A DNA stretch of 64,000 nt from an uncultured virus (IMG/VR IMGVR_UViG_3300010334_004649) (lineage: Duplodnaviria; Heunggongvirae; Uroviricota; Caudoviricetes), in IMG/VR virus record IMGVR_UViG_3300010334_004649; one strand, written 5' to 3'. Under the pieces are notes generated by a model. That model ran no database searches. It was not told the origin of the DNA and saw only the letters and a program-made list of their open reading frames with translations. Made by a program: the position numbers and the translations under genes. Position 1 is the first letter of the stretch. The number at the start of each line of letters is the position of its first letter. Below are positions 14,251-44,614 of the stretch, piece by piece.

Positions 14251-14729
14251 ATCTTCCTCGTGAGGTTGAGATAGGCCGGACTGGGGCTGAACAGAAATTC
14301 TGACCATTGCTGCTGTAGATCTCGTATGGTAGCTGGCTTAAAGATCTTGATATTGGGCAATGCTGACAATACCGCACTGTCATCATGCGCCCAGTGACTG
14401 ATACCATCGTGGCTGTAGTCACGATCTCTGCCACTGCCAATCAGTTTCACAGGTATTTTTTCGTAGTTGACATAGTTTCTAAGAAATTCAAAAGGCCGAT
14501 ACAGTAGGAAAGAACTCATACTGTAGCAAACTGCAGTTTTGCCGGCAGTGGCTAGACCGATACCAGCACCGATCATCAGTTGTTCGGCTGCTCCCACATT
14601 CCAGAACCTCATTGGATAGGTATCGCGTATGCTGTCCAACAGGCCAAATCCAAGATCGGCGGTCAGTACTACAATATCGCTGTGGTCAGCCATGCTGTTC
14701 CACAGCAGGTCCATGCATTCTTTTCTCAC
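14247..14729 (-). CDS. Transketolase-like pyrimidine-binding subunit (short)
   Basis: LTADLG, NVGAAEQLMIG...GLA..G, DGISHWA..D; no C-terminal domain. Confidence 0.88.
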   Translation of the reverse strand: MRKECMDLLWNSMADHSDIVVLTADLGFGLLDSIRDTYPMRFWNVGAAEQLMIGAGIGLATAGKTAVCYSMSSFLLYRPFEFLRNYVNYEKIPVKLIGSGRDRDYSHDGISHWAHDDSAVLSALPNIKIFKPATIRDLQQQWSEFLFSPSPAYLNLTRKI

Positions 14730-15334: not shown

Positions 15335-15336
15335 TT

Positions 15337-16880: not shown

Positions 16881-16885
16881 GTTAA

Positions 16886-20561: not shown

Positions 20562-21311
20562 TTAGTTGCAAGTAATATCTAGCTGCTCTGCTACACTCAG
20601 GTCGCACATCAGTTTAAAAATTTTTTGCGAATTTTTGGCAGTCAATAGGTTCGAAAGCAGCAGTTTGGTCCTGTCATCGTCGCGTATAAGGCCTACTTTA
20701 CTGGCATTTCGTTGTATCAGCAATTGATCGCGCTGTAACCATTTGGGATTTTGGAACAAACTCACTGCTTTGAACCATCTAAGAATTATAATTGGGTCTT
20801 GGTCTATCTTTGTCTGTGGATCTGGACAGAATTTCACAAGGCTTTCCGCTAGATCTGATTCTCCATTTTGGTAATCGTACAGATTACCTTGCAGGTCTAG
20901 ACTCATGCTGTTGATGGTAATATCGCGGCTGGCACTGTCTCGTTCCCAACTGTTGTTGCGGGCGATTTTGATATGATTGTCTGTTACCTTCATCTTGTAG
21001 GTAATGCTGGTAACATCTACCTTGTCGTCGCCAAACACCGCTTTGACCGTGCCGTGACCAATTCCGCCTGCATCGTAGTCAATGCCTTCTAGGTCAAAGA
21101 TAAAGATCAGTTCAGCAGGTTCAGCATCTGTAGCAAAATCCACATCTCTTGGCTTGTTGCCCAGCAGGAAATCTCTGACAGCACCTCCTACTACTCGCAG
21201 ATCAAATCCATATTTGCGTATGGTTTCTATTGTAGTTTTCACATCCGGAGTGAAAACCTGAGAAAAATCAGTTATGTTGATGCGATTTTCTATTTCAAAT
21301 AGGTTTTTCAT
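20562..21311 (-). CDS. Class II tRNA nucleotidyltransferase / poly(A) polymerase family enzyme with a variant template motif
   Basis: VVGGAVRD.LLG..PRDVDFAT and RDITINSM; the EDxxR position reads QDPII; ATGA overlap gives the start MKNLFE. Confidence 0.88.
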   Translation of the reverse strand: MKNLFEIENRINITDFSQVFTPDVKTTIETIRKYGFDLRVVGGAVRDFLLGNKPRDVDFATDAEPAELIFIFDLEGIDYDAGGIGHGTVKAVFGDDKVDVTSITYKMKVTDNHIKIARNNSWERDSASRDITINSMSLDLQGNLYDYQNGESDLAESLVKFCPDPQTKIDQDPIIILRWFKAVSLFQNPKWLQRDQLLIQRNASKVGLIRDDDRTKLLLSNLLTAKNSQKIFKLMCDLSVAEQLDITCN

Positions 21312-23215
21312 AGTGCTATGGTCCAATATCCAGGAAAGTATTCTGCTGCTACAACTGGTGCCCAAAATCCATATTTCCATTGATACAATCTATTCGAATT
21401 GAGATTCAAGATGAGTTGGGTAGCGCTGTCGATTGTACTGTTGAAATCAACTACCCAGGCATTGCTATCATAGGTAATGATGTCATTCGACGTGCCACGT
21501 GCATAGAAATTTATCGGCGCATAATTGTCATTGGTTATGGTAATATTGCTGTTGAGCGGATCTACTTGGTTAATTACTGTAATTGTTGTGCTGTTGACTG
21601 ACAAAACAGTGCTACCATCTGGTATTCCAACATTGGCACTGACAATCAACTGTCCAGCAGAGATTGATATATTTGGTGATGACAGCTGTATTTCTGTGGT
21701 ACCAGCCGTCCATTTTCCTGCTGCTACGGCCACTGGGTTTGACTGAGATATACTGATATTGCCCCAAGACTGGCTAGCAATTGGAAGGTTTTCGGTCAGT
21801 AGATATCTTTGTCCGGGTGTTGCATCAGGCAGATTGATGCCGGGTCCGCTGACAGTTGGATCAATTATTGCATTGATCGGAGGCAAGGTTGACGAAGGAA
21901 AACTTTCTGGTTCGGCTATCCAGTAGAGTATGTTTTGGTCAGTTGGATCTATTTCAATCCAACCAACTAGATCACTATTGGTCTGAGCAAGATCATCTAC
22001 TGTTTTCAGCCTTATTTGGCTGGCATTGGTTCCGTATTGACTGTAGGGTTTTGGCGTACCATAAAATTGCAACAGTCTCCACCAAGCCAGATTGCCACCT
22101 TGATATGTAGCCGACTCAAGACCCAGTGCTGCTAATGACCCTGATACAACATCTGCAAATATATTGTCACCACCTGCTGTATTGATAAATTGCATAGTGG
22201 TATTGTTATACAGCACACAATTCAACTTTGTGTCAGTGAGATAACTGCGTATTTCAGCGATGGCGCTGACAACATTTGTAGTAGAGATAGTGATCTGTAT
22301 GGTATTCCAAATGAATACCATACCAACAAACAACCTTGGATAATTTGTAGCAAATGTAACAGTTGGTAGTTTTTCCTGGTCAATTGGTGAACCATTGCTA
22401 GCACAGAGGCTTAAAGCATATGTTGTGCTGTTGACATTGCTGACCCTTATAATGGCCTGTCCTGGTGTAACAACAGTCCTTGCTAGAAATTCGTAATCGT
22501 TCCATTCCATTGCACCGGGGCTGATACTGCCTTGTACTATATTTGTAATGACTTCCTGTATCAATACTTGTTTTTTGACTTTGGCTGGGGGATTGATCCA
22601 GATTGGAAATTTAAATTGTATGGTAGCTATATCAATGGGGTTTTCAGTGCCTATGGGGATTGTACGAGAACTCCATGTGATGTTTTCCATCATTTCTATA
22701 TAAGTCAACACGGTCCAATCTATTGGATTATTGCTGGTTTGTATGTTGATGCTGGGATTGTACAACACCATGATCTGTTCCAGCAATTGTTCTTTTATAT
22801 CTTCATTATTGGTCCATATATCAACCTGCATGGTAACATCGTATGGTACAGGCATGTATCTGTCAACACGGTAGCGATTGCCTATTTCATTAGTGTATTT
22901 CTGTTGTTGTTGATCGTAATATCGTTCGTCGACCTGTACTGATTGTGAAAAAAATGGATCCTGCCGTCTAGATGATGACATTACTAGGCTGTTGATATAA
23001 CAGGTAATGAATGGCACACTGAGAGTTTTGTTTTCGCTGTTGCCCCTGACTATTGTGGCCGCTACGCGAGATGGATCCCCGTATCTGCAGGGCACTTTGA
23101 TCAACTCTTCCGTGTTGTTGGGTCCACCTCGGCCAGTTTTAACAGAAAAACCACTGAAAGCACGTATGAACTGCAGGCGATATTGCCTTAACTGTGCAGA
23201 GTACCAATATTGCAT
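21308..23215 (-). CDS. 15: Tail terminator / sheath stabiliser (gp15-like) with a long C-terminal extension
   Basis: Y.Y..Q.RQY..QF, VP..YG, MPVPY......DIWT.N..QLLEQI..L.NP, WINPP.KV. Confidence 0.8.
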   Translation of the reverse strand: MQYWYSAQLRQYRLQFIRAFSGFSVKTGRGGPNNTEELIKVPCRYGDPSRVAATIVRGNSENKTLSVPFITCYINSLVMSSSRRQDPFFSQSVQVDERYYDQQQQKYTNEIGNRYRVDRYMPVPYDVTMQVDIWTNNEDIKEQLLEQIMVLYNPSINIQTSNNPIDWTVLTYIEMMENITWSSRTIPIGTENPIDIATIQFKFPIWINPPAKVKKQVLIQEVITNIVQGSISPGAMEWNDYEFLARTVVTPGQAIIRVSNVNSTTYALSLCASNGSPIDQEKLPTVTFATNYPRLFVGMVFIWNTIQITISTTNVVSAIAEIRSYLTDTKLNCVLYNNTTMQFINTAGGDNIFADVVSGSLAALGLESATYQGGNLAWWRLLQFYGTPKPYSQYGTNASQIRLKTVDDLAQTNSDLVGWIEIDPTDQNILYWIAEPESFPSSTLPPINAIIDPTVSGPGINLPDATPGQRYLLTENLPIASQSWGNISISQSNPVAVAAGKWTAGTTEIQLSSPNISISAGQLIVSANVGIPDGSTVLSVNSTTITVINQVDPLNSNITITNDNYAPINFYARGTSNDIITYDSNAWVVDFNSTIDSATQLILNLNSNRLYQWKYGFWAPVVAAEYFPGYWTIAL

Positions 23216-26598: not shown

Positions 26599-29500
26599 AT
26601 GTCAGGTTCGTTAACTTCTCCGGGCGTAAAGGTAAGTATAATAGATCAAAGTGCCTACGGTGTGTCAGGAACTGGCACAGTGCCTTTGATCGTAATAGCC
26701 ACTGCATCTAATAAAATAGCTCCGGGTAGCACAACGATCGCACCAGGTACATTGCCACAAAATGCTGGCAATCTTTATCTAATCACCAGTCAACGAGATG
26801 CTCTGCAGACTTTTGGTAATCCAACCTTTTACAGCGCTGCTGGCACTGTACAGTATAACAATGAACTCAACGAACTGGGCCTTTTCACACTATATACATA
26901 CCTTGGTGTTGCCACAAGCGCTTATGTCATACGTGCAGATGTTGATCTTGATCAATTAATTCCCAGCACTGTTGCTCCATCTGGACCAACCACCAACGGC
27001 ACTTATTGGTTGGACACTACTAAAACAACCTGGGGCATATTCCAAAGCAATGGCAATATAAATCCGGCATATTCATGGCAGAACAAAGTTCCAGCTGTAA
27101 TCAGCAACAGCAGCCAACTGTGTGCTATTGTGCAGGGATACAGCACTCATAACGGTCCAATAGCCAGTGGCTCAGCATCTTGCATAACAGCATCTGGCAG
27201 TTTGGTAATTAATGGTGTCACAGTTGCACTGACAGCAGGTAGCAGTTTGGCACAGGTAGCCAGTGCTATCAACAGCAACACTACCCTGCAGATTGCAGGA
27301 ATTTCTGCTACAATATTCATACGCAACGGCAAGTTTTACCCAACTGGTGAGACCATAAGCGGCTACACCACCGGAGATGTCTATAACCTGCGCATGGTCA
27401 ACAAAGTCTACACCAAAACTTTTGCACTGTCGGGGTCAACTCCATCAATCCTTCAAGATCTTGGATTGTCTGCAGATCCAATGACAATCGTGCAACCAGT
27501 CAGCAGTTTTGGAACATCTAACCAATATGCTGTAAACACACTAGAGGATGGTACCGGCTTTTATGATAATACAGTATTCCAAAAAATCACACTTACTTCC
27601 AGTAGTGCAACTACCGATTGGTGGTTTGCTGTAGGGTCAAGTGAAGCAGAATATCCTGGGTACTCTTGGATGGACGCAGTTCCAACTGTGATAACTGGTA
27701 CTATTCCAAATCCAACATTTACTGCAGCCACTGCATGTACTATCAAAATTGGTAACGGGTCACCCCTGACAGTAACAGTGCCTGCTGCACCAAACAACAC
27801 ACTAGTTGGTTTTGTTGCTGCTATTAATACCCAACTCAACAGCGGTGAAGGTACTAATGCAGTTGCCAGTATCACAACACAGGGTGGTTTGAACTATCTC
27901 ACCCTGACTAACTATGATGCCAGTGATATATTCCTGCAGGATCTTACCGATCAGTATGGCAATGGAACACCATGGGGAAATGCTGGTATCTCAGCAGCCA
28001 ACACCTATTGGGCCAGCGTAACTGGTACAGTGGCCTCTCCAACCTATGTGGCTGCTACCTTGAAAACCCAGTCAGCATCGGTAGTAGCCCCTGGTGTAAA
28101 CTATCTAAATGGTGACACGGTCACAACACTAGGCGGAACTGCTGCTACTGATACCATATTGACTGTGGCTAGCCTGCAGGCTGTAAGTGCAGCCCCAAAT
28201 GCCCCTGGCACGTCCTATGCGGTCAACGATACATTGACATTTGGTACCAGCAACGGCAGTTATACATCAACAGTGATACTGCAGGTAACAGCCATTGATG
28301 GTAATGGAGGTATTACCGGAGTGTCCATATTGCAAAATGGACAATTTACAGGTGTTACTCCGCCAACATCAGGGGCAACACCCAGTGCCACTAGTGGCAA
28401 CGGGTCCAGCGCTACAATTGATCTGTCATGGGGCGTTAATACTGTCACTGTGAGCACACCTGGTAATTACACAGTGTATCCAACCAATCCGGTTACCACT
28501 ACTTCGGGCGGTTCAGGCACCGGGGCAACCTTTAATTTGGTGCCAACATGGTTGACCAGCAACAGTTTCAGCATCACCCTGCCAGGTCTGTCACCCACAA
28601 TAGTACATGTGCCTGCCAGTCCAAATAATACCCTAAATGGATTGGTATCAGAAATCAACACTGTGGCCTTCCCCAATGGTCCAATCGTAGCATCGGCTGT
28701 TAACAACCAATTGGTGATAACCAACACCAATGGAACAGCATTTACTCTACAAGATTTGAGCGGAACTCCGTTGAACAGTTCAGGAATAGCCACGGGAGCT
28801 ACATTTGCTAGAGGTATAATCTACCAGGGTTATCAACCAACTCTCACTGTACCATCTAAATTGCCTCAGTTGGCTGCCAACAATGTATGGATCAACACCA
28901 CAGTTGGCGGCATGGGTGCAAACATCGTGCTAAAACGCTATGAAAGTGGACAATGGATTGTACAGAATACTGTACCAAATACAGGTTCTATTCCATTCTA
29001 TGCCAATGATGATGCTGCAAACACTGCCTTTGGTGCCCTCAAAGCCACCGGTAGCATTTATGCACAATATAATTATTATGATGATATGCCAGCAACGGCA
29101 AATTTTGTGCTGCAGGTTTGGACTGGATCTTCCTGGGAAGCACTTGGATATACTCCAAGTCTACTAGCGCCAAAGGGACCACCCTTGGATGGCACTCTTT
29201 GGTACAACACCTCTCTGCAAGTTGACATAATGGTCAACAATGGACAGGAATGGTTGGGATATAGAAACTTGTATCCAGGAACTGATCCAAATGGTCCCAT
29301 ACTCAGCTCAGCAACCCCTGTAACACAGAGCACCGGTGCACCATTGGTTGACTACGATATCTGGGTTGATACTGAGATTGTTCCGTATCCATCTATCTCT
29401 CGCTATAATGCCAGCACTGCATCTTGGATCCAGATCGACAATCAAGATCATGTGGACAGCGCTGGTATAATCTTTGCTGATGCTCGCAGCACAGCAGATG

Positions 29501-30681
29501 GGACCGTAACAGGCAGCACCAGCGAGGCTGACATGGTTCGCAGCAACTATGTTGACCCAGATTGTCCAAATGCACTGCTGTACCCACCTGGAATACTGTT
29601 GTTCAACACACGCTACAGCACCTACAATGTCAAACGTTGGTCAGTCAATTATTTCCCACAAAACTACGGTACCATATACCCAACTGATACCTGGGTAACC
29701 TTCAGTGGCAACGACAATCTTGGAGTTGCCTATATGGGTCCACAGGCTCAGCGTGCAGTAGTAGTAAATGCACTCAATGCTGCACTAGAGAACAGCACTG
29801 ATGCAAGGTCGATACAGAACTACTTCACTCTGATATCAACACCAGGTTATCCAGAGTGTATTGCACAGATGGTTCAACTGAATGTTGACATCAATAACGT
29901 TGCATTTGTGGTAGGTGACACTCCAAGCACGCTGCAGCCAACTGGTACCAGCATACAAAACTGGGCTACCAATGCTGCCAATGCTGCAGAAAATGGACCT
30001 CTTGGTCTTATCACTCACAGTTCTTATCTTGGTCTTTGGTATCCATGGGGATTGACTGCTGATCTTCAGGGAAATAACGTTGTTGTTCCACCAAGCCTTA
30101 TTGCACTGACTACTATTGCATATAATGATTCTGTATCGTATCCGTGGTTTGCACCTGCAGGATTCAATCGCGGGTTGGTCAGTGTGGTATCCAGCGTAGG
30201 GTACATTGACGCAGCAGGGGATTATATTCCAGTTAGTCTAAACCAAGGACAACGTGATGTGTTATATATCAACAGTATCAATCCAGTTGCCTACATGCCA
30301 GGTCGTGGGTTGGTTGTATTTGGACAAAAGACACTAGATCCAATAGCAACTGCTCTTGATAGGATCAATGTGGTACGCTTGTGCTGCTATCTTGCATATA
30401 ACCTCAACAACTTGGCACAGCCATTCTTGTTTGAACAGAATGATTCAACCACCCAGGCAAACGTTACTGCACTGTTCAAATCATATCTGCAGGGTCTAGT
30501 GGGTTTGAGAGCCATCTATGACTTCTCAGTGGTTTGCAACAGCAGCAACAATACTCCTGCTAGAATTGCAGCGAATCAATTGTGGATTGACATTGCTATA
30601 CAGCCAGAGATAGCAATAGAATTCATCTATATACCTGTGCGTGTGTTGGCCACTGGCGCTGCACTTCCAACCGGCGGCTAA
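26599..30681 (+). CDS. 18: Tail sheath protein (gp18-like), 1360 aa with large beta-rich insertions
   Basis: SPGVKV...D.S, FG.P, PWFAPAG.NRG, QRD.LY...INP, GQKTL.....ALDRINV.RL, FEQND. Confidence 0.93.
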   Translation: MSGSLTSPGVKVSIIDQSAYGVSGTGTVPLIVIATASNKIAPGSTTIAPGTLPQNAGNLYLITSQRDALQTFGNPTFYSAAGTVQYNNELNELGLFTLYTYLGVATSAYVIRADVDLDQLIPSTVAPSGPTTNGTYWLDTTKTTWGIFQSNGNINPAYSWQNKVPAVISNSSQLCAIVQGYSTHNGPIASGSASCITASGSLVINGVTVALTAGSSLAQVASAINSNTTLQIAGISATIFIRNGKFYPTGETISGYTTGDVYNLRMVNKVYTKTFALSGSTPSILQDLGLSADPMTIVQPVSSFGTSNQYAVNTLEDGTGFYDNTVFQKITLTSSSATTDWWFAVGSSEAEYPGYSWMDAVPTVITGTIPNPTFTAATACTIKIGNGSPLTVTVPAAPNNTLVGFVAAINTQLNSGEGTNAVASITTQGGLNYLTLTNYDASDIFLQDLTDQYGNGTPWGNAGISAANTYWASVTGTVASPTYVAATLKTQSASVVAPGVNYLNGDTVTTLGGTAATDTILTVASLQAVSAAPNAPGTSYAVNDTLTFGTSNGSYTSTVILQVTAIDGNGGITGVSILQNGQFTGVTPPTSGATPSATSGNGSSATIDLSWGVNTVTVSTPGNYTVYPTNPVTTTSGGSGTGATFNLVPTWLTSNSFSITLPGLSPTIVHVPASPNNTLNGLVSEINTVAFPNGPIVASAVNNQLVITNTNGTAFTLQDLSGTPLNSSGIATGATFARGIIYQGYQPTLTVPSKLPQLAANNVWINTTVGGMGANIVLKRYESGQWIVQNTVPNTGSIPFYANDDAANTAFGALKATGSIYAQYNYYDDMPATANFVLQVWTGSSWEALGYTPSLLAPKGPPLDGTLWYNTSLQVDIMVNNGQEWLGYRNLYPGTDPNGPILSSATPVTQSTGAPLVDYDIWVDTEIVPYPSISRYNASTASWIQIDNQDHVDSAGIIFADARSTADGTVTGSTSEADMVRSNYVDPDCPNALLYPPGILLFNTRYSTYNVKRWSVNYFPQNYGTIYPTDTWVTFSGNDNLGVAYMGPQAQRAVVVNALNAALENSTDARSIQNYFTLISTPGYPECIAQMVQLNVDINNVAFVVGDTPSTLQPTGTSIQNWATNAANAAENGPLGLITHSSYLGLWYPWGLTADLQGNNVVVPPSLIALTTIAYNDSVSYPWFAPAGFNRGLVSVVSSVGYIDAAGDYIPVSLNQGQRDVLYINSINPVAYMPGRGLVVFGQKTLDPIATALDRINVVRLCCYLAYNLNNLAQPFLFEQNDSTTQANVTALFKSYLQGLVGLRAIYDFSVVCNSSNNTPARIAANQLWIDIAIQPEIAIEFIYIPVRVLATGAALPTGG

Positions 30682-30686
30682 TTTAA

Positions 30687-30720
30687 TTGTTCAGGGAGGG
30701 ATAGATCCCTCCCTGAACAA
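30687..30720. terminator. Long perfect hairpin after the sheath gene (terminator or stabiliser)
   Basis: TTGTTCAGGGAGGGA-TAGA-TCCCTCCCTGAACAA. Confidence 0.75.
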
Positions 30721-30756
30721 GTTGATTTTCAGCAGATTTGATCTAATAATCTTTAT

Positions 30757-30951
30757 ATGATACGATCAAATTCTATAAAAAATGCACAGGCATGGCAATT
30801 GTCAGAATCAGTGCGGATGTCGAGGCATGGTCTCCTAGACCAATCCAGCTTTGATCCAACACGTGACTGGTCAGAACTAGCAATCATAAAACCGGTAATT
30901 GAACCTGCAAGATCTAGTGTCACATCATCGGAAATTCTAACAAAAAAATGA
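30757..30951 (+). CDS. Small hypothetical protein
   Basis: 64 aa; ATGA overlap with the next gene. Confidence 0.5.
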   Translation: MIRSNSIKNAQAWQLSESVRMSRHGLLDQSSFDPTRDWSELAIIKPVIEPARSSVTSSEILTKK

Positions 30952-31235
30952 TCGATAATCAGCAACTTTTAGAAACTCAGCAAAAATTCAATATTCTAGT
31001 CTATGAAACCATAATGGTTATCTATACAAAAGTATTGGAGGAAGTTGAAGCCAAAGAAGCCCTTGGATTGGTGATCTCTGCTCTAGCAACAAACCTTGGG
31101 GGAATTATAGCACAAATTCCAGATGAATACCGCATACAATATGCTGAAATGACCCAGCATATATTGCGCGACAGCATAAACAAAAACCTTGAGACTATGG
31201 CTAGACAAATATATGGACAGGTTGGACATGCATAG
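30948..31235 (+). CDS. Small helical hypothetical protein
   Basis: 95 aa; overlaps both neighbours. Confidence 0.7.
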   Translation: MIDNQQLLETQQKFNILVYETIMVIYTKVLEEVEAKEALGLVISALATNLGGIIAQIPDEYRIQYAEMTQHILRDSINKNLETMARQIYGQVGHA

Positions 31236-31791
31236 TATAACAATACCAACAGATGCTTTCAGCAGCGGTCAAATATCCAGCAAGATCTGGCTCTGCAGAG
31301 AACTAGAAAACCTCAACATCAGAAAACCTCAGATTGTCTATGTTTACGGAGGTTGGATTGGTGTAGCTAGTTTTTTACTCTTGACTCGTGAGAAATATCC
31401 AATCAAACACATACGTAGTTTTGACATAGATGCTGAATGCGAAGTCATAGCCGATCATCTTATGGAGAATTATGTTTGGCAGCAATGGAAATTTAAAGCA
31501 GTAACGGCTGACTGTAATAAAATCGACTTCAACGCCGAACAACCAGATCTTGTGATTAATTGCAGCACCGAGCATTTTGATTCACTGGAATGGTTTGATG
31601 CCATTCCAGACGGCACTCTGTTAGCGCTGCAAAACAACGATATGCCACACGATCAACATTCAACCTGTGTTGGTGGATTAAAAGAAATGATAGAGCGGTT
31701 TCCGTTGCAAGATATCAAATTTACTGGTCAAATGGATTTCTGTTACCCAACTTGGCAGTTTAGTCGTTTCATGATAATAGGTAGAAAATGA
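31228..31791 (+). CDS. Class I SAM-dependent methyltransferase-like protein
   Basis: GQ..SK.WL, VYGGWIG, SFDID, DLVINCSTEH, RFMIIG; start chosen from RBS spacing. Confidence 0.75.
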   Translation: MHSITIPTDAFSSGQISSKIWLCRELENLNIRKPQIVYVYGGWIGVASFLLLTREKYPIKHIRSFDIDAECEVIADHLMENYVWQQWKFKAVTADCNKIDFNAEQPDLVINCSTEHFDSLEWFDAIPDGTLLALQNNDMPHDQHSTCVGGLKEMIERFPLQDIKFTGQMDFCYPTWQFSRFMIIGRK

Positions 31792-32336
31792 CAAATTTTA
31801 TTACCAAAATAAATCACACGGTCGACCTCAGCAGGCTTTCCTCTGATCTAGACAGCATACTTGAAATGACCTCCTGGGACCCTGAAAACCAAATAGGTCT
31901 TAGACATCGACCAAACTGCGTTGATCCTTGGAAAGACAGTATTGGCAGCATACATGATCCAATTACCAATGTGATTCATGCTAGAGAACAGGATTTCAAT
32001 ATCTGGAACGCAGACTGTCCGCAATATACCAAATCTATTTTAGAAGATTTTGGGCAGCAGCAAGGGTTAACCTGGGGCCGTATACGTTTCATGAGAGCAC
32101 AGCCAAAACACGGGCTGTCAATGCACTGGGACAAGGAACCACGTTATCATATTGTGCTGAAAACAAATATATCAGCGATATTTGGCGAATGCTTTAGAAA
32201 TGATCCTGTAAGGGCCACAGCCTATCACATGCCGGCAGACGGTCACTGGTACAGAGTCGACACCACTCGAGAACATTTTGTCTACAATGGTGGGCGCGAA
32301 CCGCGCATACATTTGGTATGTTGTCCTGTGATATGA
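31788..32336 (+). CDS. 2OG-Fe(II) oxygenase, Asp/Asn beta-hydroxylase-like
   Basis: GRIR.M, HWD...RYHI facial triad, DT...H...NGG...RIHLV. Confidence 0.8.
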   Translation: MTNFITKINHTVDLSRLSSDLDSILEMTSWDPENQIGLRHRPNCVDPWKDSIGSIHDPITNVIHAREQDFNIWNADCPQYTKSILEDFGQQQGLTWGRIRFMRAQPKHGLSMHWDKEPRYHIVLKTNISAIFGECFRNDPVRATAYHMPADGHWYRVDTTREHFVYNGGREPRIHLVCCPVI

Positions 32337-32813
32337 TCACAGTGTTTGCAATTCAGTTTTGAAAATCTTATCCCATAATGGATGGAACAGCCCGTAGTTT
32401 TTGCGCTGTTTTCTATGATGTACAAGATGCCATCTGCCACTGGTAATCCATGGGTAGAAATCAAACTTGGAATTGTGTTCTAGTTGCTCCTGAAGGAGAG
32501 CAGCCCATAGATAATAGGCAACACTCAACCACCAAAACCCAGTAACGGCAGAAAACAGCAGAGTTGGTATTACCTCTGTTATCCACAGATCAATAGTACT
32601 GGCAATGGTGTCATTGTAAAGCAAGAGATTGTTCCAGTGCCAAGCAGTTCCTCCATGACGATCTATGAAGCGATGATGATCCTGATGATATCTGTTAAAA
32701 ACGTGTATGCGATGCACGGCCCTGTGTATCCAATAAAGCATGAATGTCCAGGCTAGGAACACTGCTGCAATAATCAAAATTTGTTGTGATATGAATAAAA
32801 TTTGCTCGATCAT
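32337..32813 (-). CDS. Sterol desaturase / fatty acid hydroxylase family membrane enzyme
   Basis: His boxes HRAVH, HQDHH, HLVHH; NYGLF...WD.IF.T. Confidence 0.88.
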   Translation of the reverse strand: MIEQILFISQQILIIAAVFLAWTFMLYWIHRAVHRIHVFNRYHQDHHRFIDRHGGTAWHWNNLLLYNDTIASTIDLWITEVIPTLLFSAVTGFWWLSVAYYLWAALLQEQLEHNSKFDFYPWITSGRWHLVHHRKQRKNYGLFHPLWDKIFKTELQTL

Positions 32814-33886
32814 TGGCTGTCCAACAGGTTTTTTGATGCTGTGTACTTATCTGTAGTTTGATCATAATAGATAAAATCATGCATGTTGGCATAGCGAGTA
32901 AGACTGGGAATGCTGGGATATTTTGTCTTGTATTTGAAATATTCTATATCATGATTTACTGCATAAATCATCTGTTTTGCGGGCAGTTTATAACTGAACC
33001 AATCATCTAATACTTTCTGTTCATCGGTCAACACTGCCCAATCTTGGAATTGCTGTGTTTCAAAGAAGTGAACTACACGTTTGGCCATAGCGTCTACCAA
33101 ATCCGGTGAAGGAGCATGGCTAACCAAGCGAAATTTAACAGCCTGCCACTTCAGCACAAAATTCAACCACCAAAAGCAGTCATGATTGCTGCTGCAACCG
33201 CGTGGGTTGACAGCAAACAGACGTTCCATAAGGTCTTGGCATACTGTGCGCTGAGATTGATCAGTGATTTTGGCCAGCATCCAATCTCTTCCAGTTTTAC
33301 TGAATGGCTTGTGTATGGCCTGCTGATCGCCTGTGGCATCCATGTAACTTTTGACTGTGAGGCTGCCAAAAATGTTGTCTGCAAACTCACCTGTGAGGCA
33401 TAGGTTGTTGGGGTCAGCTATGAGAGAATGAAAATTAGCAGCATTGGCAAATCTTGTACCAAAGGCTGGTATCAGACAGTCGTACCAAAATTTTGGATTT
33501 TCCTTAATGCTGTCTTCAGTGAGAACCAACAGCATGCGGTGTTTTGTCTTGGCAAACAGATCATGCGATATGGCCAGTGCTGCTATTAATGTGCTGTCGA
33601 TTCCGCCGCTGTAGAATATCACCAACTGCTGATTGTTTTCCATAGCAGTACGGAGGATGGTGTTGAATCTATCACGAGCAATATCTTCAAATGATCTTGG
33701 TTTTGACCATGCAGTAATGGGGTCAAAACATTTCATTGGTATTGGCGGACAATTGATCACTCCTGATCGATCCAACAGACTTATGCTGGCATTGAACATC
33801 TGTGCAAACGAAGCCTGAACAGGGTTGGTCGCAGACATGTTGTGATCAGCATAGAGACGATGTGGGGTATAATAAACCAATTCCAT
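32810..33886 (-). CDS. PP-loop ATP pyrophosphatase, asparagine-synthetase C-terminal-like
   Basis: FYSGGIDST and TGEFADNIFG motifs; no glutaminase domain. Confidence 0.8.
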   Translation of the reverse strand: MELVYYTPHRLYADHNMSATNPVQASFAQMFNASISLLDRSGVINCPPIPMKCFDPITAWSKPRSFEDIARDRFNTILRTAMENNQQLVIFYSGGIDSTLIAALAISHDLFAKTKHRMLLVLTEDSIKENPKFWYDCLIPAFGTRFANAANFHSLIADPNNLCLTGEFADNIFGSLTVKSYMDATGDQQAIHKPFSKTGRDWMLAKITDQSQRTVCQDLMERLFAVNPRGCSSNHDCFWWLNFVLKWQAVKFRLVSHAPSPDLVDAMAKRVVHFFETQQFQDWAVLTDEQKVLDDWFSYKLPAKQMIYAVNHDIEYFKYKTKYPSIPSLTRYANMHDFIYYDQTTDKYTASKNLLDSQ

Positions 33887-33895
33887 GATCAGTTC

Positions 33896-34537
33896 CTATA
33901 ACAATATGTTGACAAACATGTCCTTGTCCAGGTCTGCGGAGATTTTTTCAAAATCTCTAGTGGTTTGGGCACGTTTTACAGCTTCAAAATATCTCAAACG
34001 TAGACGTTCAACATGACGCAAATGTTGATACCAACCGTCATGTTTCAGCAATATCAAGGTTGCTGCTGTGTCGATATCTAGACCACGCTCCTGAGCAAAA
34101 TCAAATACAAACCCATCTTGTCTAAAATCACTGAGTTTATTTGATAAAATGTCTTTAGATTCAATGACTTTAGCATGGTAAATATCTATTTGTTGTGTAG
34201 TAATAGTGCGATGTTTATTCAGTGCATGTTCCAATCTACTTTTGATGTTGGCCAATGCTTTGAGTCTAGCCTTGTAGATCTGCGATAGCGTTTGTGTGCA
34301 CAGGGTCCTATTACAGGGCTTTAACCAAGTTGATCGCAGGTTTTTATAGATTATTGTGAAATCATAACATTCTGATTTCAAACTTTCGTACTCACCCGTT
34401 GTAACTCCGTAGATTTTCACTATGGTTTGGAAGTCATGCTCTGTGATGATCTGCAGTTTTACTACATCATCGTCGGCAATTATTACTTCGTTGTCGACTG
34501 TTGCTGCAATGGCTATCCAACGCATGCAGTTCTCCAT
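33896..34537 (-). CDS. Hypothetical protein with a tail-fibre-assembly-like C-terminal domain
   Basis: Y.AK..E...IL.....F....AQERG.....AA.LIL.K...W......ERLR......VKRAQT pattern. Confidence 0.55.
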   Translation of the reverse strand: MENCMRWIAIAATVDNEVIIADDDVVKLQIITEHDFQTIVKIYGVTTGEYESLKSECYDFTIIYKNLRSTWLKPCNRTLCTQTLSQIYKARLKALANIKSRLEHALNKHRTITTQQIDIYHAKVIESKDILSNKLSDFRQDGFVFDFAQERGLDIDTAATLILLKHDGWYQHLRHVERLRLRYFEAVKRAQTTRDFEKISADLDKDMFVNILL

Positions 34538-35379
34538 AGCCCCCAGAGACGTTTGGTCTCAGACCAGGGCGATATCAATGGTACCAGCAGGAGACAGGGA
34601 TCAAATTCATACCAACGACAGCTGACACTGGTGCCAAAATCAAAACTTTTTGGCTGTGCGTGATGGTTATTGTGCCAACCCTGCCCCCAACCTAGGTAAC
34701 CAAGATACCAGACATTTTCACTGTTGTCTTTGGTTTCAAACGGTCTATAACCGGTATTGCGGCTGTGACAGATGAGATTCACGAGGTTTTCTGTGTGCAG
34801 CATGATCACAGCGGGAATTGCTATGAAAAACAGACAAAACGCAGGGTCGATAGCCAGTGACACTGCCCAAGTGGTCCATATGACCTTGTTGTAATTTTTA
34901 TGAAACCAAATTAGAGTACCATCGCGCAGGAGACTGGTACCGTATTTGAGATTTACAGTATCATGTGTTACCCCAAACATCCAACCCATGTAGGCCTGCC
35001 ACTTGCCTTTGATTGGACTGTGTATGTCTCGTTCGCTGTCGGCGTGAGCATGATGATAACCTCTGTGTAGAGCAGCCCACCAGATAGGTGAACCCTGCCC
35101 GGTCAAACAGGCCAGCCAATATAGAACAGGTTTCAACCATGAGCGTACCTGAATACTTTGGTGAGAAAGATATCTATGCAGTGTGACAGCATCGCCGATG
35201 CCACCGATCACTACCCAACCTGCTAGCAACCATATGAAATAGGTCCATGACCATGATGTGACTGCAACGTAAATGCCTGCTAGAGCAGCAAGGTGATAGG
35301 GCCATACAATGGCAAACATCGCAGGTATTTGCCCTGTGACACGAAAGGTGGCTATGTTAAGTTTTATCCAATTTTTCAT
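34513..35379 (-). CDS. Delta-9-type membrane acyl desaturase
   Basis: HRYLSH, GSPIWW...HRGYHH...D...DIHSP, G.GWHNNHH.P.S, WYEFDP. Confidence 0.92.
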   Translation of the reverse strand: MKNWIKLNIATFRVTGQIPAMFAIVWPYHLAALAGIYVAVTSWSWTYFIWLLAGWVVIGGIGDAVTLHRYLSHQSIQVRSWLKPVLYWLACLTGQGSPIWWAALHRGYHHAHADSERDIHSPIKGKWQAYMGWMFGVTHDTVNLKYGTSLLRDGTLIWFHKNYNKVIWTTWAVSLAIDPAFCLFFIAIPAVIMLHTENLVNLICHSRNTGYRPFETKDNSENVWYLGYLGWGQGWHNNHHAQPKSFDFGTSVSCRWYEFDPCLLLVPLISPWSETKRLWGLWRTACVG

Positions 35380-35944
35380 CTGGGTCTCTCTTCAGTATGT
35401 AACGACGTATATTAATGTCATATGGATATAATGTGTAACCCATGATTGACCAATAAAGGCTGAAATCTGGTTTCATGCCACTAGATATCTTGGTTTCTAC
35501 AAATGTCCAATATTTAGTTCTCAAGGGCTGCATTAACCTGCGGTAGGCTTCTTCTCTATCGCAGGGACTTATCACATAAAACTCATTGAGATTTTGTGAT
35601 TCGTAATGACGACATAAAAACTGCACAATGTCACGCCATATTTTCACAAATGCAATGGTTTGTACTTCACTTATGGTCCAAGAAAGATACCAACAGGGAT
35701 ATGTCTTAAGGGACCTAGCACCTACTGCAGTTATCAAGTGGCCAGAATCATCGAACACTCCTAATACTCGTCGAATATCGCTGTCGACTGTGTTTGCTGG
35801 GATCAAGAACAGATCAAAAAGTGAAGATTTTGCAGAATTTAAGGCATTGGGATAATTGTTTTTTTCATTTTTATACACATGGTCACTCAGGGCTTGTATC
35901 CTGTGACGTTCGCCATGCTGCAACCATCTCATGCTATATTGCAT
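35357..35944 (-). CDS. Hypothetical protein, possible GNAT fold
   Basis: RRVLGVFDDSGHLITAVG strand pattern followed by WYLSW; translationally coupled in the operon. Confidence 0.5.
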   Translation of the reverse strand: MQYSMRWLQHGERHRIQALSDHVYKNEKNNYPNALNSAKSSLFDLFLIPANTVDSDIRRVLGVFDDSGHLITAVGARSLKTYPCWYLSWTISEVQTIAFVKIWRDIVQFLCRHYESQNLNEFYVISPCDREEAYRRLMQPLRTKYWTFVETKISSGMKPDFSLYWSIMGYTLYPYDINIRRYILKRDPDEKLDKT

Positions 35945-36870
35945 GTCATACTCCTGTTGTTTTGCAGATTATTCAACAGCAGTTTGGCATCAAAAAGAAA
36001 TTCTGCAGGATCGTCATGTAGTATCAGACTGGTTTTGGTCTGGACATATTCCCATATGTGCGTCATCTTTTCCATGCCATGTCTTTTGTGTCTTTTTTTC
36101 ATATCAAATGCTGTGAGTTCGGTATATATTTTGTGTTTACTGCTGGTCCAACCCAGTTTGCCTGGAATACGGTCATGTATCAAATCGTCCACTGTGGGCG
36201 ATTGCAAAAAGTGCAGGATTGTAGTTGGATCATAGGTATAGAAATTATTATATGCAAGTATACCAGTTTTACCAACAAACCGATGCCAGCAGCCGTCTTG
36301 ATCTTCTTTTTTTACCAACCACCAATTGTTGTGATGTTTTTGTATTTCTATCTCATCTATGGTTATCATAGGCTTTGGTGATCGTTCGGCTATTGACAAC
36401 AACAGTTGTTGATAAAACGTATAACATTGATAGGTCTCGGCAATACGCTGCCAGTCTCCTGAATGGAAAAATGCCACAGGATCTATGGTAACAATCTTTG
36501 GAAGTATATTAAGTTCAGCACACAGGGTCTGTGCAGAGTCAACATCTGGTCGATTGAGATCATCTGTGAATTCTAAAACCACCACGTCCACAGCGAGACC
36601 CTGCTGGTGAAACATACGCAGTGCTACCTCGCTGTCTAGACCGCCACTGAGAAAGAACCGCAGGTCGTTGCCATGACGCGCATGCAGAGTTTTTGCCGTG
36701 GCCATGAGACTTTCTACAAAAGAACCGCCGTTGTCGACCTCAGCATCGCCGATACAGCAGTGGGCGACTTCGTAAGGATGACTGCGGCGCAGTTGTTGAT
36801 TTTGCCAATTGAACCAGTAACGCAGATGATTGGCTTTGGTCAATTCATATGCAGAATATACGTATCTCAT
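35929..36870 (-). CDS. Second PP-loop (adenine nucleotide alpha hydrolase) protein
   Basis: FLSGGLDSE motif, K..IY......K..GME C-terminus; ATGA overlap sets the start. Confidence 0.75.
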   Translation of the reverse strand: MRYVYSAYELTKANHLRYWFNWQNQQLRRSHPYEVAHCCIGDAEVDNGGSFVESLMATAKTLHARHGNDLRFFLSGGLDSEVALRMFHQQGLAVDVVVLEFTDDLNRPDVDSAQTLCAELNILPKIVTIDPVAFFHSGDWQRIAETYQCYTFYQQLLLSIAERSPKPMITIDEIEIQKHHNNWWLVKKEDQDGCWHRFVGKTGILAYNNFYTYDPTTILHFLQSPTVDDLIHDRIPGKLGWTSSKHKIYTELTAFDMKKRHKRHGMEKMTHIWEYVQTKTSLILHDDPAEFLFDAKLLLNNLQNNRSMTCNIA

Positions 36871-37496
36871 GTTTTGATCAAGGCCTCTGCTATAACAAGG
36901 GTTTGATAATGATCCAGTGGTTTTAACACGCACCACTGCGGTGTGTGTCTAATGTTGACAGGATTTGGTATCGCCAAACAGTCATTCCACCAGCTGCTCC
37001 AGACCTTGCCAAGACCAGCGGCCTTGGCAGATGATTTTCTCACAATAGCATCATAAATCTGCTTGTTGTAATCGTTAAATGTCAACATCATTGCTGCAGC
37101 ATTCTGCAATTGACTCCACAATAGATTGCTGGACAATAGATATCTAGTAACTTGGTTGTGTTGCCGATGCTGATCATCTAGCCAGCATCTGATGCCACCA
37201 ATGGTGAGTTGGGGCGCAATTGCTGTATGTTCAACACAGCTGATGCCTATCATGATATTGCCATGCCTTAAAATGGTTATTTCACCTTGGTCTTTGGTCC
37301 ATCTCAATTGGTTTTTGATGTTGAACAATAGGCCTGCTTGGTGATCGATCAACATATTGTCTATGGCAGGATGATCAGGATGCCTGAGTCTTTGAACTTC
37401 TACAAATTGGCATATGTCCTGCCATTGATTGGCAGATATGTTATTGCTGCTCAGTCGTTCACAGAGATAGCTAGTGTCAACAGATACTTCAGACAT
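36867..37496 (-). CDS. Hypothetical protein, possible GNAT fold
   Basis: HPA..NM, IMIGISCV, GGIRCWL...HR, LTFNDYN; first gene of the operon. Confidence 0.55.
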   Translation of the reverse strand: MSEVSVDTSYLCERLSSNNISANQWQDICQFVEVQRLRHPDHPAIDNMLIDHQAGLLFNIKNQLRWTKDQGEITILRHGNIMIGISCVEHTAIAPQLTIGGIRCWLDDQHRQHNQVTRYLLSSNLLWSQLQNAAAMMLTFNDYNKQIYDAIVRKSSAKAAGLGKVWSSWWNDCLAIPNPVNIRHTPQWCVLKPLDHYQTLVIAEALIKT

Positions 37497-37579
37497 GGCT
37501 TAATGATAATAGGAACGTTGATGATATTCAATCTGTATTGATCCAAAACTTTGGGTGATTTAAAAAAAGACAAATAGCA

Positions 37580-37609: not shown

Positions 37610-38260
37610 ATGGCTATCGTCCAAAATCAAAATCCAGGATTAACTACTTTAAGCAACTTTGGTGTCCCAGTTGGTCCAAATGGACAGGGCCCTGGGAATG
37701 GCGGGTTTGGCCTACTGATGCCTAAACTCAAAAATAGGTTCCAAATCGAACTTACCAATTTTGCTGATAGTTCGCCGGGGTCTACGCGAATACTTACACG
37801 ACAGGTTGTAACATGTGCACGACCAAGTCTACAGTTCAACAGCACAGCATTGCATAGTTACAACAATATTGTTTATATTCCGCAAAAACCTGAATGGACC
37901 GAAATAGAACTGACTCTGCGGGATGATATAACCAACGAACTCACCAGTGCAGTAAGTTTTCAACTCCAACGACAGATGAACCACTATACTCAGAGTGCGG
38001 CGGCAGCTGGCTCTGACTTCAAATTTCAGATGTATATTAATGTTCTAGATGGGACAATTTCTGAACAAGCGGCAACCAGTCTCGAATCATGGTATCTTGA
38101 GGGTTGCTATATACAACAGGCCCAATATGACAGTCTTGACTATAGCAGTTCTGATCCGGTAATGATAACCCTGACTATACGTTACGATAACGCAACACAG
38201 GGCGATGAGGCAAATATTCCGCTTCCAGTGAGAGATCCTGCAAGTAACGCTGCAGGCTAA
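37610..38260 (+). CDS. 19: Tail tube protein (gp19-like)
   Basis: LMPKLKNRF, RP, W..I.LTLRDD, E.W.LEGC........LDY......I.LTIRYDNA. Confidence 0.88.
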   Translation: MAIVQNQNPGLTTLSNFGVPVGPNGQGPGNGGFGLLMPKLKNRFQIELTNFADSSPGSTRILTRQVVTCARPSLQFNSTALHSYNNIVYIPQKPEWTEIELTLRDDITNELTSAVSFQLQRQMNHYTQSAAAAGSDFKFQMYINVLDGTISEQAATSLESWYLEGCYIQQAQYDSLDYSSSDPVMITLTIRYDNATQGDEANIPLPVRDPASNAAG

Positions 38261-42380: not shown

Positions 42381-42782
42381 ATGGCAAAAAACAACACCGA
42401 TTTTGAAAAACTCAAACCAGCTGGGAAAAAGGTATCGTTCAACAAAGAACAGTTGGCCGAAATCTATGCATGTCATAGTAATCCGATACATTTTATGGAA
42501 AACTTCATGTGCATCCAGCATCCGGTCAAGGGCAAGATGCCATTCGAAGCCTATCAATTCCAACGGGAACTAATCAATACCTATTGGCAAAATCGCAATA
42601 CAATTGCTATGATTCCTCGCCAGAGTGGTAAATGCTGTCTAAATAGTACTATAATAACTGTTAAACAAAATAGTACAGGAAAGCAATATGATATACCAAT
42701 CGGCGAATATCATCAGTGGGCATCTGACATGCGAGATCACGGTACCTCTGGTATTGATATCAATCGATACCAAAAAAAATAG
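42381..42782 (+). CDS. 17: Terminase large subunit N-part fused to split-intein N fragment (IntN 42633-42779, 49 aa)
   Basis: IQHPVKG...F..Y.FQ, PRQSGK|CCLNSTII; the ORF stops after the intein N-terminal strands. Confidence 0.9.
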   Translation: MAKNNTDFEKLKPAGKKVSFNKEQLAEIYACHSNPIHFMENFMCIQHPVKGKMPFEAYQFQRELINTYWQNRNTIAMIPRQSGKCCLNSTIITVKQNSTGKQYDIPIGEYHQWASDMRDHGTSGIDINRYQKK

Positions 42783-42901
42783 TTGGACAAAAATTACCAA
42801 TATTATGTCTGCCTCTTGGCAGCGTAGATGGCCTTCACTTTATGGACTTGGGATGCTGATTCCTTTTATTAACTCAAATACCCAATCACGGGATAAGAAC
42901 T

Positions 42902-44614
42902 ATGAATGAGCTTTCTGAAACCATAACTCGCAAATTTATAGACGTAGTCGATCTCGATGATTGGTCAGTAATGTCAGATACCGGTTGGCAAGACTGCATC
43001 TCCATAAACAAAACCGTGATGTATGATGTATGGAGGTTGGAATTAGAAAACGGACAGATTTTGTTGTGTGCAGACGATCACATAGTATTTGATGAACACT
43101 ATCATGAAACATTTGTCAAGGACCTTGCTCCAACCCATGTGGTGATCACAGCGTCTGGCCCGGTCAGGGTGCGGTCAGTGATCAATCTCAATTACAGCGA
43201 CAACATGTATGATCTGTCAGTAGATTCTCCGGAACATAGATATTTTGCAGATGGCATATTGAGCCATAATACAACCACTGCAGCAGGATATTTACTTTGG
43301 TATGCCATGTTCAACGACGATGTAACGGTGCTGATCGCAGCCAACAAGTTCAAGGCCGCTAATGAGATCATGATGCGCATCAAATATGCCTATGAGGAGA
43401 TGCCCGATCACATAAGATGTGGTGTAGTGGAATACAATGTTACCAGTATAAGGTTTGACAACGGTTCACGTATTGTGGCCACTACAACGACACCAGACAG
43501 TGGCCGCGGCATGAGTATCAGCCTATTGTATCTAGATGAGTTTGCCTATGTACGACCTAGAGTGGCTGTTGAGTTTTGGACAGCTATGGCCCCTACCTTG
43601 GCCACCGGTGGCAAATGCATCATCACTTCAACCCCCGCCAGCGATGAGGATATGTTTGCTCAACTGTGGTTTGGCGCTATTAATACCATTGACGAAAAAG
43701 GCAACGAGATACCCAACGGCATTGGTAGAAACGGATTCAAAGGGTTTTCTGCGCATTACAGCGACGTTCCCGGACGCGATGAAATCTGGGCCGAAGTAGA
43801 GCGTGCCAAAATTGGCGACGAGCGTTTCATGCGTGAATATGAATGTCAGTTTGCCGGTGAAGAAAGCACACTGATCAGTGGGTTGACTCTGCAGCGATTG
43901 AAAGGTATAGATCCTCTCTACAAGACCAATGACGTGAGATGGTATGTCAAACCTGCTCCGGAACTTACCTATCTTGTGAGCCTTGATCCCAGTGCAGGCA
44001 TCGGCAAGGACCCTGCAGCCATAGAGGTATTTTCAATACCAAACATGGTCCAGGTTGCCGAATGGAGCAGCAACAGGGCCAGTGTACCAAATCAAGTTCG
44101 AACGCTGCAGGTCATTATTGAAAAGATCTACAATGACTGCAAACGCGGTGGCATAAAAGGCGAACCAGACATATACTTTTCATTTGAAAACAACTCCTGG
44201 GGAGAGGCTGCATTACAGACCATATCTGATATAGGCGAGGAAAATTTTCTTGGCCAGTTGTTGAACGAACCAAAAAAAGTGGGATTAACTAGAACCCGCA
44301 AGGGTCTCAATACCAATGGACGCAGCAAGGCCATGGCCTGCAGTAAACTGAAAAGTTTAGTAGAAGGCAATAGGCTAACACTTCACAGTAAATTATTGAT
44401 AAAACAAATGAAATTTTTCACCAGCAGAGGCGATGGTTTTGCTGCCAAGCAGGGTGAACATGACGATTGTGTAATGGCGACCATTCTTTGTGTGCGCATG
44501 ATGCAGATGGTCACAAACTGGGACGACCGAATCGGCGAAATACTCAAGGATGCATTTGATGATGACACGACCGATACTAGAGATCCACTGCCGTTTTCGG
44601 TCATCTTCAACTAA
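42902..44614 (+). CDS. 17: Split-intein C fragment (42902-43270, 123 aa) fused to terminase large subunit C-part
   Basis: CADDHIV block B, YDL.V....HRYFADGILSHN|TTT, then LDEFA Walker B, ITSTP, DPSAG.G.D, HDDCVMA. Confidence 0.93.
   Translation: MNELSETITRKFIDVVDLDDWSVMSDTGWQDCISINKTVMYDVWRLELENGQILLCADDHIVFDEHYHETFVKDLAPTHVVITASGPVRVRSVINLNYSDNMYDLSVDSPEHRYFADGILSHNTTTAAGYLLWYAMFNDDVTVLIAANKFKAANEIMMRIKYAYEEMPDHIRCGVVEYNVTSIRFDNGSRIVATTTTPDSGRGMSISLLYLDEFAYVRPRVAVEFWTAMAPTLATGGKCIITSTPASDEDMFAQLWFGAINTIDEKGNEIPNGIGRNGFKGFSAHYSDVPGRDEIWAEVERAKIGDERFMREYECQFAGEESTLISGLTLQRLKGIDPLYKTNDVRWYVKPAPELTYLVSLDPSAGIGKDPAAIEVFSIPNMVQVAEWSSNRASVPNQVRTLQVIIEKIYNDCKRGGIKGEPDIYFSFENNSWGEAALQTISDIGEENFLGQLLNEPKKVGLTRTRKGLNTNGRSKAMACSKLKSLVEGNRLTLHSKLLIKQMKFFTSRGDGFAAKQGEHDDCVMATILCVRMMQMVTNWDDRIGEILKDAFDDDTTDTRDPLPFSVIFN

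Follow-up and report, generated by a model that had tools for sequence, protein, structure and literature searches.

In the terminal-alkyne and polyyne cassettes of the JamABC and TtuABC type, a ligase, an acyl carrier protein (ACP) and a membrane desaturase are combined, and in lasso-peptide biosynthesis the cyclase is a glutaminase-less, AsnB-like amide ligase that works with a dedicated partner protein. In ornithine-lipid and acyloxyacyl aminolipid synthesis (PMC12971839), N-acylation or an ATP-dependent amide step, the latter by the GH3-like OlsH, precedes tailoring by the LpxO-type OlsC and OlsD, the di-iron OlsE and the N-methyltransferase OlsG, and in cyanophages (PMC5776448) viral desaturases (vFADs) are stand-alone delta9/DesC-like membrane enzymes with three His boxes. 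Here we describe an island of eleven open-reading frames (ORFs) in a 64,000-nucleotide stretch of DNA (the window) from the uncultured virus IMGVR_UViG_3300010334_004649, whose portal, gp23 capsid, terminase, sheath and tube genes identify it as part of a large T4-like phage. The minus-strand arm of this island encodes, in order, a probable GNAT (G209), a PP-loop enzyme (PP335), a divergent GNAT-fold protein (G195), a membrane desaturase (DES288), a protein termed X213, a predicted amide ligase domain (PP358) and a fatty-acid-hydroxylase-family protein (FAH158), and the plus-strand arm encodes g64, g95, a probable methyltransferase (MT200) and a 2-oxoglutarate (2OG) oxygenase (OG182).

The island resembles each of these systems in part. 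With the JamABC and TtuABC cassettes it shares the pairing of a ligase with a membrane desaturase, but its ligase is of the PP-loop/AsnB class, GNATs are present, no ACP was found in the window, and no AMP-binding family was detected by Pfam among the eleven ORFs. PP358 and X213 likewise recall the lasso cyclase and its partner, although the X213 model, unlike the partner in lasso systems, was not matched to an RRE/PqqD fold. No lasso precursor, RRE or B2 protease was found among the eleven ORFs with Pfam and NCBIfam, small precursors not having been searched for systematically, and g95 reached only E 0.035 and 14 bits against a PqqD-family model with a cut-off of 110. PP358 shares the fold of the AsnB class (ASNS/AsnB, TsnB9, beta-lactam and carbapenam synthetases; PDB 9b6c, 1ct9, 7ylz, 1jgt and 1q15) together with the PP-loop, a GExAD-like motif and C-terminal lysines, but differs from these enzymes in the absence of an N-terminal glutaminase-like domain, in its 10-14% identity and in its near-constant partner X213. 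In its GNATs, LpxO-type 2OG oxygenase, di-iron hydroxylase and methyltransferase, the island parallels ornithine-lipid synthesis, a likeness of working only, but its ligase is AsnB-like rather than GH3-like as in OlsH and a desaturase belongs to its core (PMC12971839). The island proteins gave no Ols-named NCBIfam or matching Pfam hit, and no O-acyltransferase was identified among them. DES288 differs from the cyanophage vFADs in its constant GNAT and PP-loop partners and in a variant HRGxHH box (PMC5776448). No paper on this gene set was found in open-licence PMC and bioRxiv, subscription papers being outside this coverage, and the initial annotation, made from the sequence alone, had stated that no phage system with these genes was known to it. 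The block is real, conserved and, as far as searched, undescribed.

Conservation of the island was assessed first from PP358. With the PP358 alignment as query, the 80 top-ranking of 445 viral loci and the 80 top-ranking of 285 metagenome loci were retrieved. Together with two others, they formed 100 groups at 90% identity, excluding the window and the locus of Pseudomonas phage Cygsa01. Gene content and flank length were pooled per group, and groups with 6 kb or more on both sides of PP358 were regarded as well flanked. Thirty-nine groups showed about 33% or more PP358 identity, and in all 25 of those that were well flanked, PP358 was accompanied by a G209-type GNAT, PP335, G195, the desaturase and X213, which together make up six core genes. 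The accessory genes were more variable in the same 25 groups (methyltransferase in 24, OG in 23, FAH in 15), and thymidylate synthase was nearby in 21. Below 33% identity, X213 was retained in all 19 well-flanked groups, while PP335 was found in two, the desaturase in one and G195 in none. The co-occurrence in other genomes that the initial annotation had proposed looking for is therefore widespread, and the recurrence of the gene set in dozens of distinct phage groups shows that it is not a chance assembly.

The independence of the parts was assessed from the desaturase side, using the best 80 of 204 desaturase loci in 40 groups, 33 of them well flanked, with genes counted within 8 kb. In these 33 groups the desaturase was accompanied by G195 in every case, by PP335 in 32 and by X213 with PP358 in 27, and a G209-type GNAT was present in 28, with another GNAT in three more. 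By these counts, the block consists of two sub-modules, PP335-G195-DES (with a GNAT) and X213-PP358, which are usually but not always joined. Their surroundings are changeable and include genes for Rieske and TauD proteins, B12 radical SAM enzymes, short-chain dehydrogenases and thioesterases. This modifies the earlier proposal of one pathway, since the two parts usually travel together, and an acyl-tailoring, amide-forming pathway is the best reading of them, but are sometimes found apart.

The SGGLDS, SGGIDS and TGEFAD motifs noted previously were all found in the translations of the two PP-loop proteins. For PP358, the Pfam asparagine synthase match was marginally over the cut-off and covered the PP-loop portion only, but the AF2 model (pLDDT 94.6) gave its best structural match to the synthetase domain of TsnB9 (Z 12.5, rmsd 5.0, 267 residues aligned), followed by human ASNS and beta-lactam synthetase (Z 11.3 each), carbapenam synthetase CarA (10.7) and E. 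coli AsnB (9.3). Other PP-loop folds gave Z scores of about 8 or less, and the Foldseek ranking agreed. SGGIDS, D170 and K300/K304/K320/K322 were invariant in the alignment, and this loop together with the modeled synthetase fold places PP358 as an AsnB-class PP-loop amide synthetase domain. No Ntn glutaminase domain is present in its 358 residues, the consensus having no N-terminal Cys, and the alignments to TsnB9, ASNS and AsnB begin at target residues 148-204. PP335 aligned with PP358 in a global profile comparison (79%, E 1.8e-6), retains SGGxDSE and the C-terminal RxKxxGxE, and reads as a distant paralogue of PP358. Its PDB matches span the PP-loop only, as do weak matches to QueC, MnmA and ThiI that fall far below the cut-offs. 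The comparison in the initial annotation with PP-loop enzymes that lack a glutaminase domain is thereby supported, with PP358 as an AsnB-type synthetase domain alone and PP335 as its probable paralogue. In the cultured-phage collection, PP335 had no match and PP358 a single weak one, in Cygsa01. This cultured Pseudomonas phage carries two PP358 homologues annotated as MnmA (locus L003, 2080-8762), an annotation that is probably wrong.

Of the 85 groups in which the gene order could be read, 81 have X213 as the immediate upstream neighbor of PP358, and the X213 profile collected 1342 representatives at E 0.001 or better. The model (pLDDT 95.3) has a small alpha/beta N-domain followed by a helical bundle, for which PDB fold searches returned generic three-helix bundles and no clear match. 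The best matches are uncharacterized phage proteins, with a weak resemblance to phage proteins of the DUF4376/HI1402 type (phrog_8258, tail-fibre assembly, E 0.007; DUF4376 entries, E 0.08-0.29; PF27318 in 13% of one Atlas cluster). Since no residue is invariant, and no catalytic residue conserved, across 67 sequences, X213 fits an adaptor rather than an enzyme. The predicted PP358-X213 complex scored 0.23 against a mark of 0.32 and was counted neither for nor against this.

The GNAT assignments differ in strength. The G195 model adopts the GNAT fold, with TM scores of 0.61-0.65 to named GNAT clusters, both sides being predicted models and the query having a pLDDT of 0.58, and PF13420 was matched by one of 30 family members. 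G209 is probably also a GNAT, as indicated by a profile match to a Pfam-positive GNAT cluster (58.7%, E 9e-5, 54 columns) and by Pfam-positive GNATs standing at its position in three loci; none of 28 G209 members had a Pfam match. PDB sequence searches with the profiles of both proteins returned nothing, and a direct profile comparison of the two gave no match (0.3%).

DES288 is a membrane delta9-type desaturase by sequence, with a PF00487 match of 63.7 bits, a match to SCD1 (E 3e-11) that places it in SCD1/OLE1 homology, transmembrane segments, and three His boxes in all 78 cluster members, of which 75 carry the variant second box HRGxHH. The cultured-phage collection yielded three weak desaturase matches only. 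FAH158 matched PF04116 at 56.8 bits with His boxes in 55 of 55 members, and is swappable, as a Rieske oxygenase stands at the same place in some close relatives. OG182 matched PF05118 (37 bits, cut-off 22.6) and its HxD...H pattern was found in 90 of 90 members; these member counts include redundant loci. MT200 is probably a class I SAM methyltransferase as judged by motifs only (conserved columns GGWxG, DID and INxSxEH), its other matches being weak (PDB profile E 0.58; profile probability 4%) and no Pfam methyltransferase family being found in 18 members. Among the labels of the initial annotation, those of desaturase, fatty acid hydroxylase and 2OG oxygenase stand with Pfam matches over cut-off and those of the asparagine-synthetase-like PP358 and the GNAT-like G195 with structure comparison, whereas G209 as a GNAT, MT200 as a methyltransferase and X213 as a chaperone are weakly supported.

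A link to acyl chains, part of the original proposal, came from the company that the module keeps in relatives of the window. One phage clade carries a canonical ACP 2-3 kb from PP358 with a 4HBT thioesterase nearby, and a complete 453-kb relative with the same sheath-tube island has an ACP gene 59 kb from it, which stands alone among baseplate genes (locus L170, 8872-9114, minus strand). In one Bdellovibrionales genome, OG, B12 radical SAM, PP335, desaturase, G195, ACP, second desaturase and G209 homologues lie within 13 kb, the ACP directly between the G195 homologue and a desaturase, and another has the order X-PP358-PP358-ORF-ACP. The first of these clusters (locus L252, 1285-15863) also holds two B12 radical SAM genes, 2OG oxygenases and a transketolase pair. 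PP335 homologues were present in 15 of 301 sampled Bdellovibrionota genomes, often beside GNATs, 2OG oxygenases or desaturases, making this phylum a candidate gene-exchange partner of the phages. The acyl-chain link is supported by the presence of ACPs with the module in Bdellovibrionota and in a single clade of phages.

Bacterial PP358 homologues, surveyed in the best 78 loci of 160 matches, are distant (33% identity or less) and occur in Patescibacteria, Bdellovibrionota, Bacteroidota and others, mostly beside X213 homologues, a cupin or a solute symporter and sometimes beside YcaO. The cultured soil bacterium Duganella sacchari Sac-22 carries PP335-G195-DES-GNAT-X-PP358-cupin in one run containing five core genes (locus L206, 2804-9685), with a 246-residue unannotated first gene, a convergent ATP-grasp gene, a desaturase 47% identical and no virion genes recognized in the locus. 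With a single-protein query, its G195 homologue was found in one of 401 sampled genomes of the family, its own. In Patescibacteria (L118 264-12544, L174-L177, L193, L199), X-PP358 and a solute symporter stand beside YcaO/SagB-type genes, and in L118 a small, Cys-rich, secreted-looking peptide is encoded upstream of X. In locus L075 (6789-11766), a tail-fibre gene is followed, in one run, by genes for a Cys-rich adhesin-like protein and a SPASM radical SAM enzyme, a pair of small genes, X, PP358 and a cupin gene.

The layout described in the initial annotation, with eleven ORFs between tail sheath and tail tube, a tightly coupled minus arm and zero-gap convergence, was recovered in full, and the sheath and tube identities of the flanks were verified by profile matches (Table 1). 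The minus-arm junctions are overlaps of 4, 16, 23, 13 and 4 nt and a single 9-nt gap, and the two arms abut where OG182 and FAH158 meet. GC and GC3 of the island were inside the range of the other window genes, giving no sign of recent foreign origin. The weak matches of g95 include Mor/late-activator PF08765 (E 7e-4, below cut-off) and phrog_532 (E 0.006).

Table 1 Island genes, flanking genes and predicted expression signals, with positions in the window
Feature	Position	Strand	Assignment or remark
Tail sheath	26599..30681	+	Left flank; phrog_10581 E 5.6e-223, PF17482
Inverted repeat	30687..30720	+	Terminator-like, 15-bp perfect repeat right behind sheath stop
sigma70-like site	30722..30750	+	TTGATT-17-AATAAT; ends 6 nt before g64 ATG
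g64	30757..30951	+	Small conserved gene; diverged orthologue of same-place gene in close relatives (judged by eye)
g95	30948..31235	+	Helical protein; found in close clade only
MT200	31189..31791	+	Probable SAM methyltransferase of class I; likely start at ATG 31213 or 31228
OG182	31788..32336	+	AspH/LpxO-family Fe(II)/2-oxoglutarate oxygenase
FAH158	32337..32813	-	Membrane di-iron fatty-acid-hydroxylase-family protein
PP358	32810..33886	-	Stand-alone asparagine-synthetase-B-type ATP-dependent amide ligase domain (predicted)
X213	33896..34525	-	Near-constant partner gene of PP358; likely start (longest frame from 34537)
DES288	34513..35379	-	Membrane-bound delta9/OLE1-type desaturase
G195	35357..35944	-	Divergent GNAT-fold protein; constant companion of desaturase
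PP335	35929..36870	-	Second PP-loop enzyme; likely start (longest frame from 36936)
G209	36867..37496	-	Probable GNAT, motif A-like segment
sigma70-like site	37503..37531	-	TTGAAT-17-TATCAT; ends 6 nt before G209 ATG
Tail tube	37610..38260	+	Right flank; phrog_4542 E 3.9e-47

The initial annotation had placed weight on the sheath-tube position, which proved to be peculiar to the closest clade, as the block stands beside sheath and/or tube in six of 39 groups. Three other carriers have contiguous dNMP kinase-sheath-tube-tube genes and a distance of about 66-86 kb between sheath and block. In the two of these three that were examined further, the block has thymidylate synthase as a neighbor and closes off the distal side of a region with baseplate/tail-fibre and glycosyltransferase-like genes. 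Because other carriers keep sheath and tube together with the block distant, the island has been relocated into this junction and its position is no clue to function.

Expression signals also set the island apart from its structural neighbors. Hairpins followed by T runs occupy the same place in all five close relatives shown, and the terminator-like hairpin behind the sheath gene is predicted to separate the island from the sheath transcript. The sigma70-like site at the head of the plus arm (score 9 of 12) has the same geometry in five of six loci, window included, against a background of 24 of 4209 ATGs, and the sites ahead of G209 score 8-9 in all four loci where G209 heads the arm, against 72 of 4209 ATGs at 8 or more; in locus L001 the head gene of the arm has no such site. 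A generic scan for promoters returned 26 sites where 19.8 +/- 5.0 were expected, and only the position-conserved arm-head sites were used from it. The hexamer TAAATA, the T4-type late motif, lies 27-47 nt before the portal, scaffold and protease genes, three genes presumed by position to be neck/tail-completion-like, the sheath (26562) and the tube (37580), while none was found before g64, g95 or G209 in the window. The predicted terminator and arm-head sites fit early or middle expression, and the sigma70-like sites and lack of a late motif at the arm heads argue against the suggested lipidation of neighboring tail proteins. In one lake metatranscriptome, 5% of the words were present and nine short contigs matched at 99% or above, including 31357-31509 (MT200) and 37258-37421 (G209); strand and level are not readable from these contigs, and they are not evidence of transcription. 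In the 40-50% identity clade (e.g., L009, L025, L035 and L096), the placement of TAA[AG]TA before genes for oxygenases suggests late transcripts that lack a leader.

The analysis shows the folds and families of the enzymes, the coupling and co-occurrence of their genes, promoter-like signals and, in relatives, linkage to ACPs. Given the co-occurrence, the AsnB-type PP358 with its probable paralogue PP335, and the ACP company, an acyl-tailoring, amide-forming pathway is the best reading of the island, and the chances appear about even that it operates in the infected cell to make an amide-linked, unsaturated and hydroxylated acyl compound of the aminolipid or N-acyl amino-acid type. An acyl thioester on a host ACP, or on a phage ACP encoded elsewhere, would be desaturated by DES288 with host electron donors, after which G195, perhaps with G209, would move the acyl chain onto an amine, for instance that of a polyamine or an amino acid. 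PP335 and PP358 with X213 would then adenylate a carboxylate and join it to ammonia or a free amine in a further amide bond, in the manner of glutaminase-less AsnB-class enzymes, and FAH158, OG182 and MT200, as a changeable tailoring set, would hydroxylate and methylate the product. Membrane remodeling, signaling or exclusion of other phages are possible purposes. The desaturation or hydroxylation and amide ligation of the original proposal are therefore kept on the grounds of folds, linkage and ACPs, but the weight it gave to the sheath-tube position is not.

Several observations weigh against this pathway. No ACP was found in the 64-kb window by motif and profile search, an ACP lay within 8 kb in just three of the 33 desaturase-anchored groups, and four of five long records searched had none, three of these four being 52-65% complete. 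The distant X-PP358 pairs are mostly without a desaturase (present in one of the 19 well-flanked groups below 33%) and can stand beside radical SAM and Cys-rich adhesin genes or YcaO genes, the two carriers examined further have the block bordering on genes for the baseplate, tail fibres and glycosyltransferase-like proteins, and the substrates and product are predictions. In the 40-50% clade, the commonest, TAA[AG]TA also lies 3-7 nt before the fatty acid hydroxylase ATG in 17 of 22 cases and before the oxygenase-like gene directly upstream of X-PP358 in 18 of 21, and, because this late-type motif precedes block genes there, expression timing may differ between clades.

One alternative is that the enzymes decorate virion proteins (an adhesin, a fibre or their glycans) with acyl or amide groups, with X213 as a fibre-binding adaptor for PP358. 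The weak resemblances of X213 to DUF4376, HI1402 and tail-assembly-type phage proteins point this way, as do the late-type motif ahead of the X-PP358 transcript in the 40-50% clade, the adjacency of the block to tail genes in the three clades checked, the two PP358 homologues of Cygsa01 directly behind a tail fibre and a Gly-rich adhesin-like gene, and the X-PP358 pairs that, in other phages, come after genes for a Cys-rich adhesin-like protein and a SPASM radical SAM enzyme. We nevertheless consider virion decoration unlikely, as the arms in the window lack the TAAATA that precedes seven structural genes, the bacterial chromosomal copies have no recognized virion genes nearby, the three other carriers checked have sheath and tube side by side, and a membrane desaturase and hydroxylase point to lipid-like substrates. 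A different objection is that there is no single pathway, and that a variable genomic hotspot has brought together G209-PP335-G195-DES, X213-PP358 and mobile oxygenases with separate roles, such as membrane-lipid remodeling for one and an amidation for another. Six of the 33 desaturase-anchored groups have no X-PP358 within 8 kb, distant loci and bacteria have X-PP358 alone or with a cupin or solute symporter, a genome may hold as many as four PP358 paralogues, and in the 40-50% clade thymidylate synthase separates the two parts, which are encoded on different strands. The single coupled run seen in Duganella and several other clades as well as in the window, and the retention of both parts in all 25 groups at 33% or more, make separate action a rather improbable account of the block. 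Modification of DNA or tRNA bases by the PP-loop and GNAT enzymes (QueC/TilS/ThiI-like), with the 2OG oxygenases and methyltransferase also acting on bases, is suggested by the weak QueC, MnmA and ThiI matches of PP335 and by thymidylate synthase nearby in 21 of 25 groups. We regard it as very improbable, given that those matches cover only the PP-loop far below the cut-offs, that the PP358 fold is of the AsnB class and that a membrane desaturase belongs to the constant core.

Extending the acyl-amide pathway, we propose tentatively, at somewhat less than even confidence, that a secondary-metabolite-like pathway, complete and so far undescribed, is present in large T4-like phages of freshwater and is exchanged with Bdellovibrionota and other bacteria. 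In it, two stand-alone ligases of the AsnB class, divergent GNATs, a desaturase linked to an ACP and a new adaptor family, X213, would produce a new class of amide lipid, which would either remodel or mark the infected cell or become attached to the virion. Arrays of oxygenase, desaturase and PP-loop genes are common in large environmental phages, mostly with no assigned product, and this block is among the most constant of them. If its product were defined, a new type of lipid or signal made by phages would be in hand, and the orphan families X213, G195, G209 and PP335 would gain functions. The promoter and terminator anatomy, the two-sub-module structure with its counts and the cultured bacterial carrier are new here, and the last of these, with its five core genes in one operon, makes the question answerable without phage isolation.

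Other features of the window were also noted. A ten-gene sugar-nucleotide/glycosyltransferase operon (10294-20532, minus strand), headed by a sigma70-like site with a score of 10 of 12, encodes GT4, two NDP-sugar epimerases/dehydratases, a split transketolase, an FkbM methyltransferase and GT34-like and mannosyltransferase-like proteins, and a gene with a CCA-adding/poly(A) polymerase head domain (PF01743) lies at 20562-21380 on the minus strand. Intein-like inserts occur in the portal, a UvsW-like helicase (with LAGLIDADG) and a DnaB-like helicase (1920-4316, 42381-44614, 50348-52900 and 60115-62488), and intein-like breaks divide both the terminase and the DnaB-like helicase into two ORFs.

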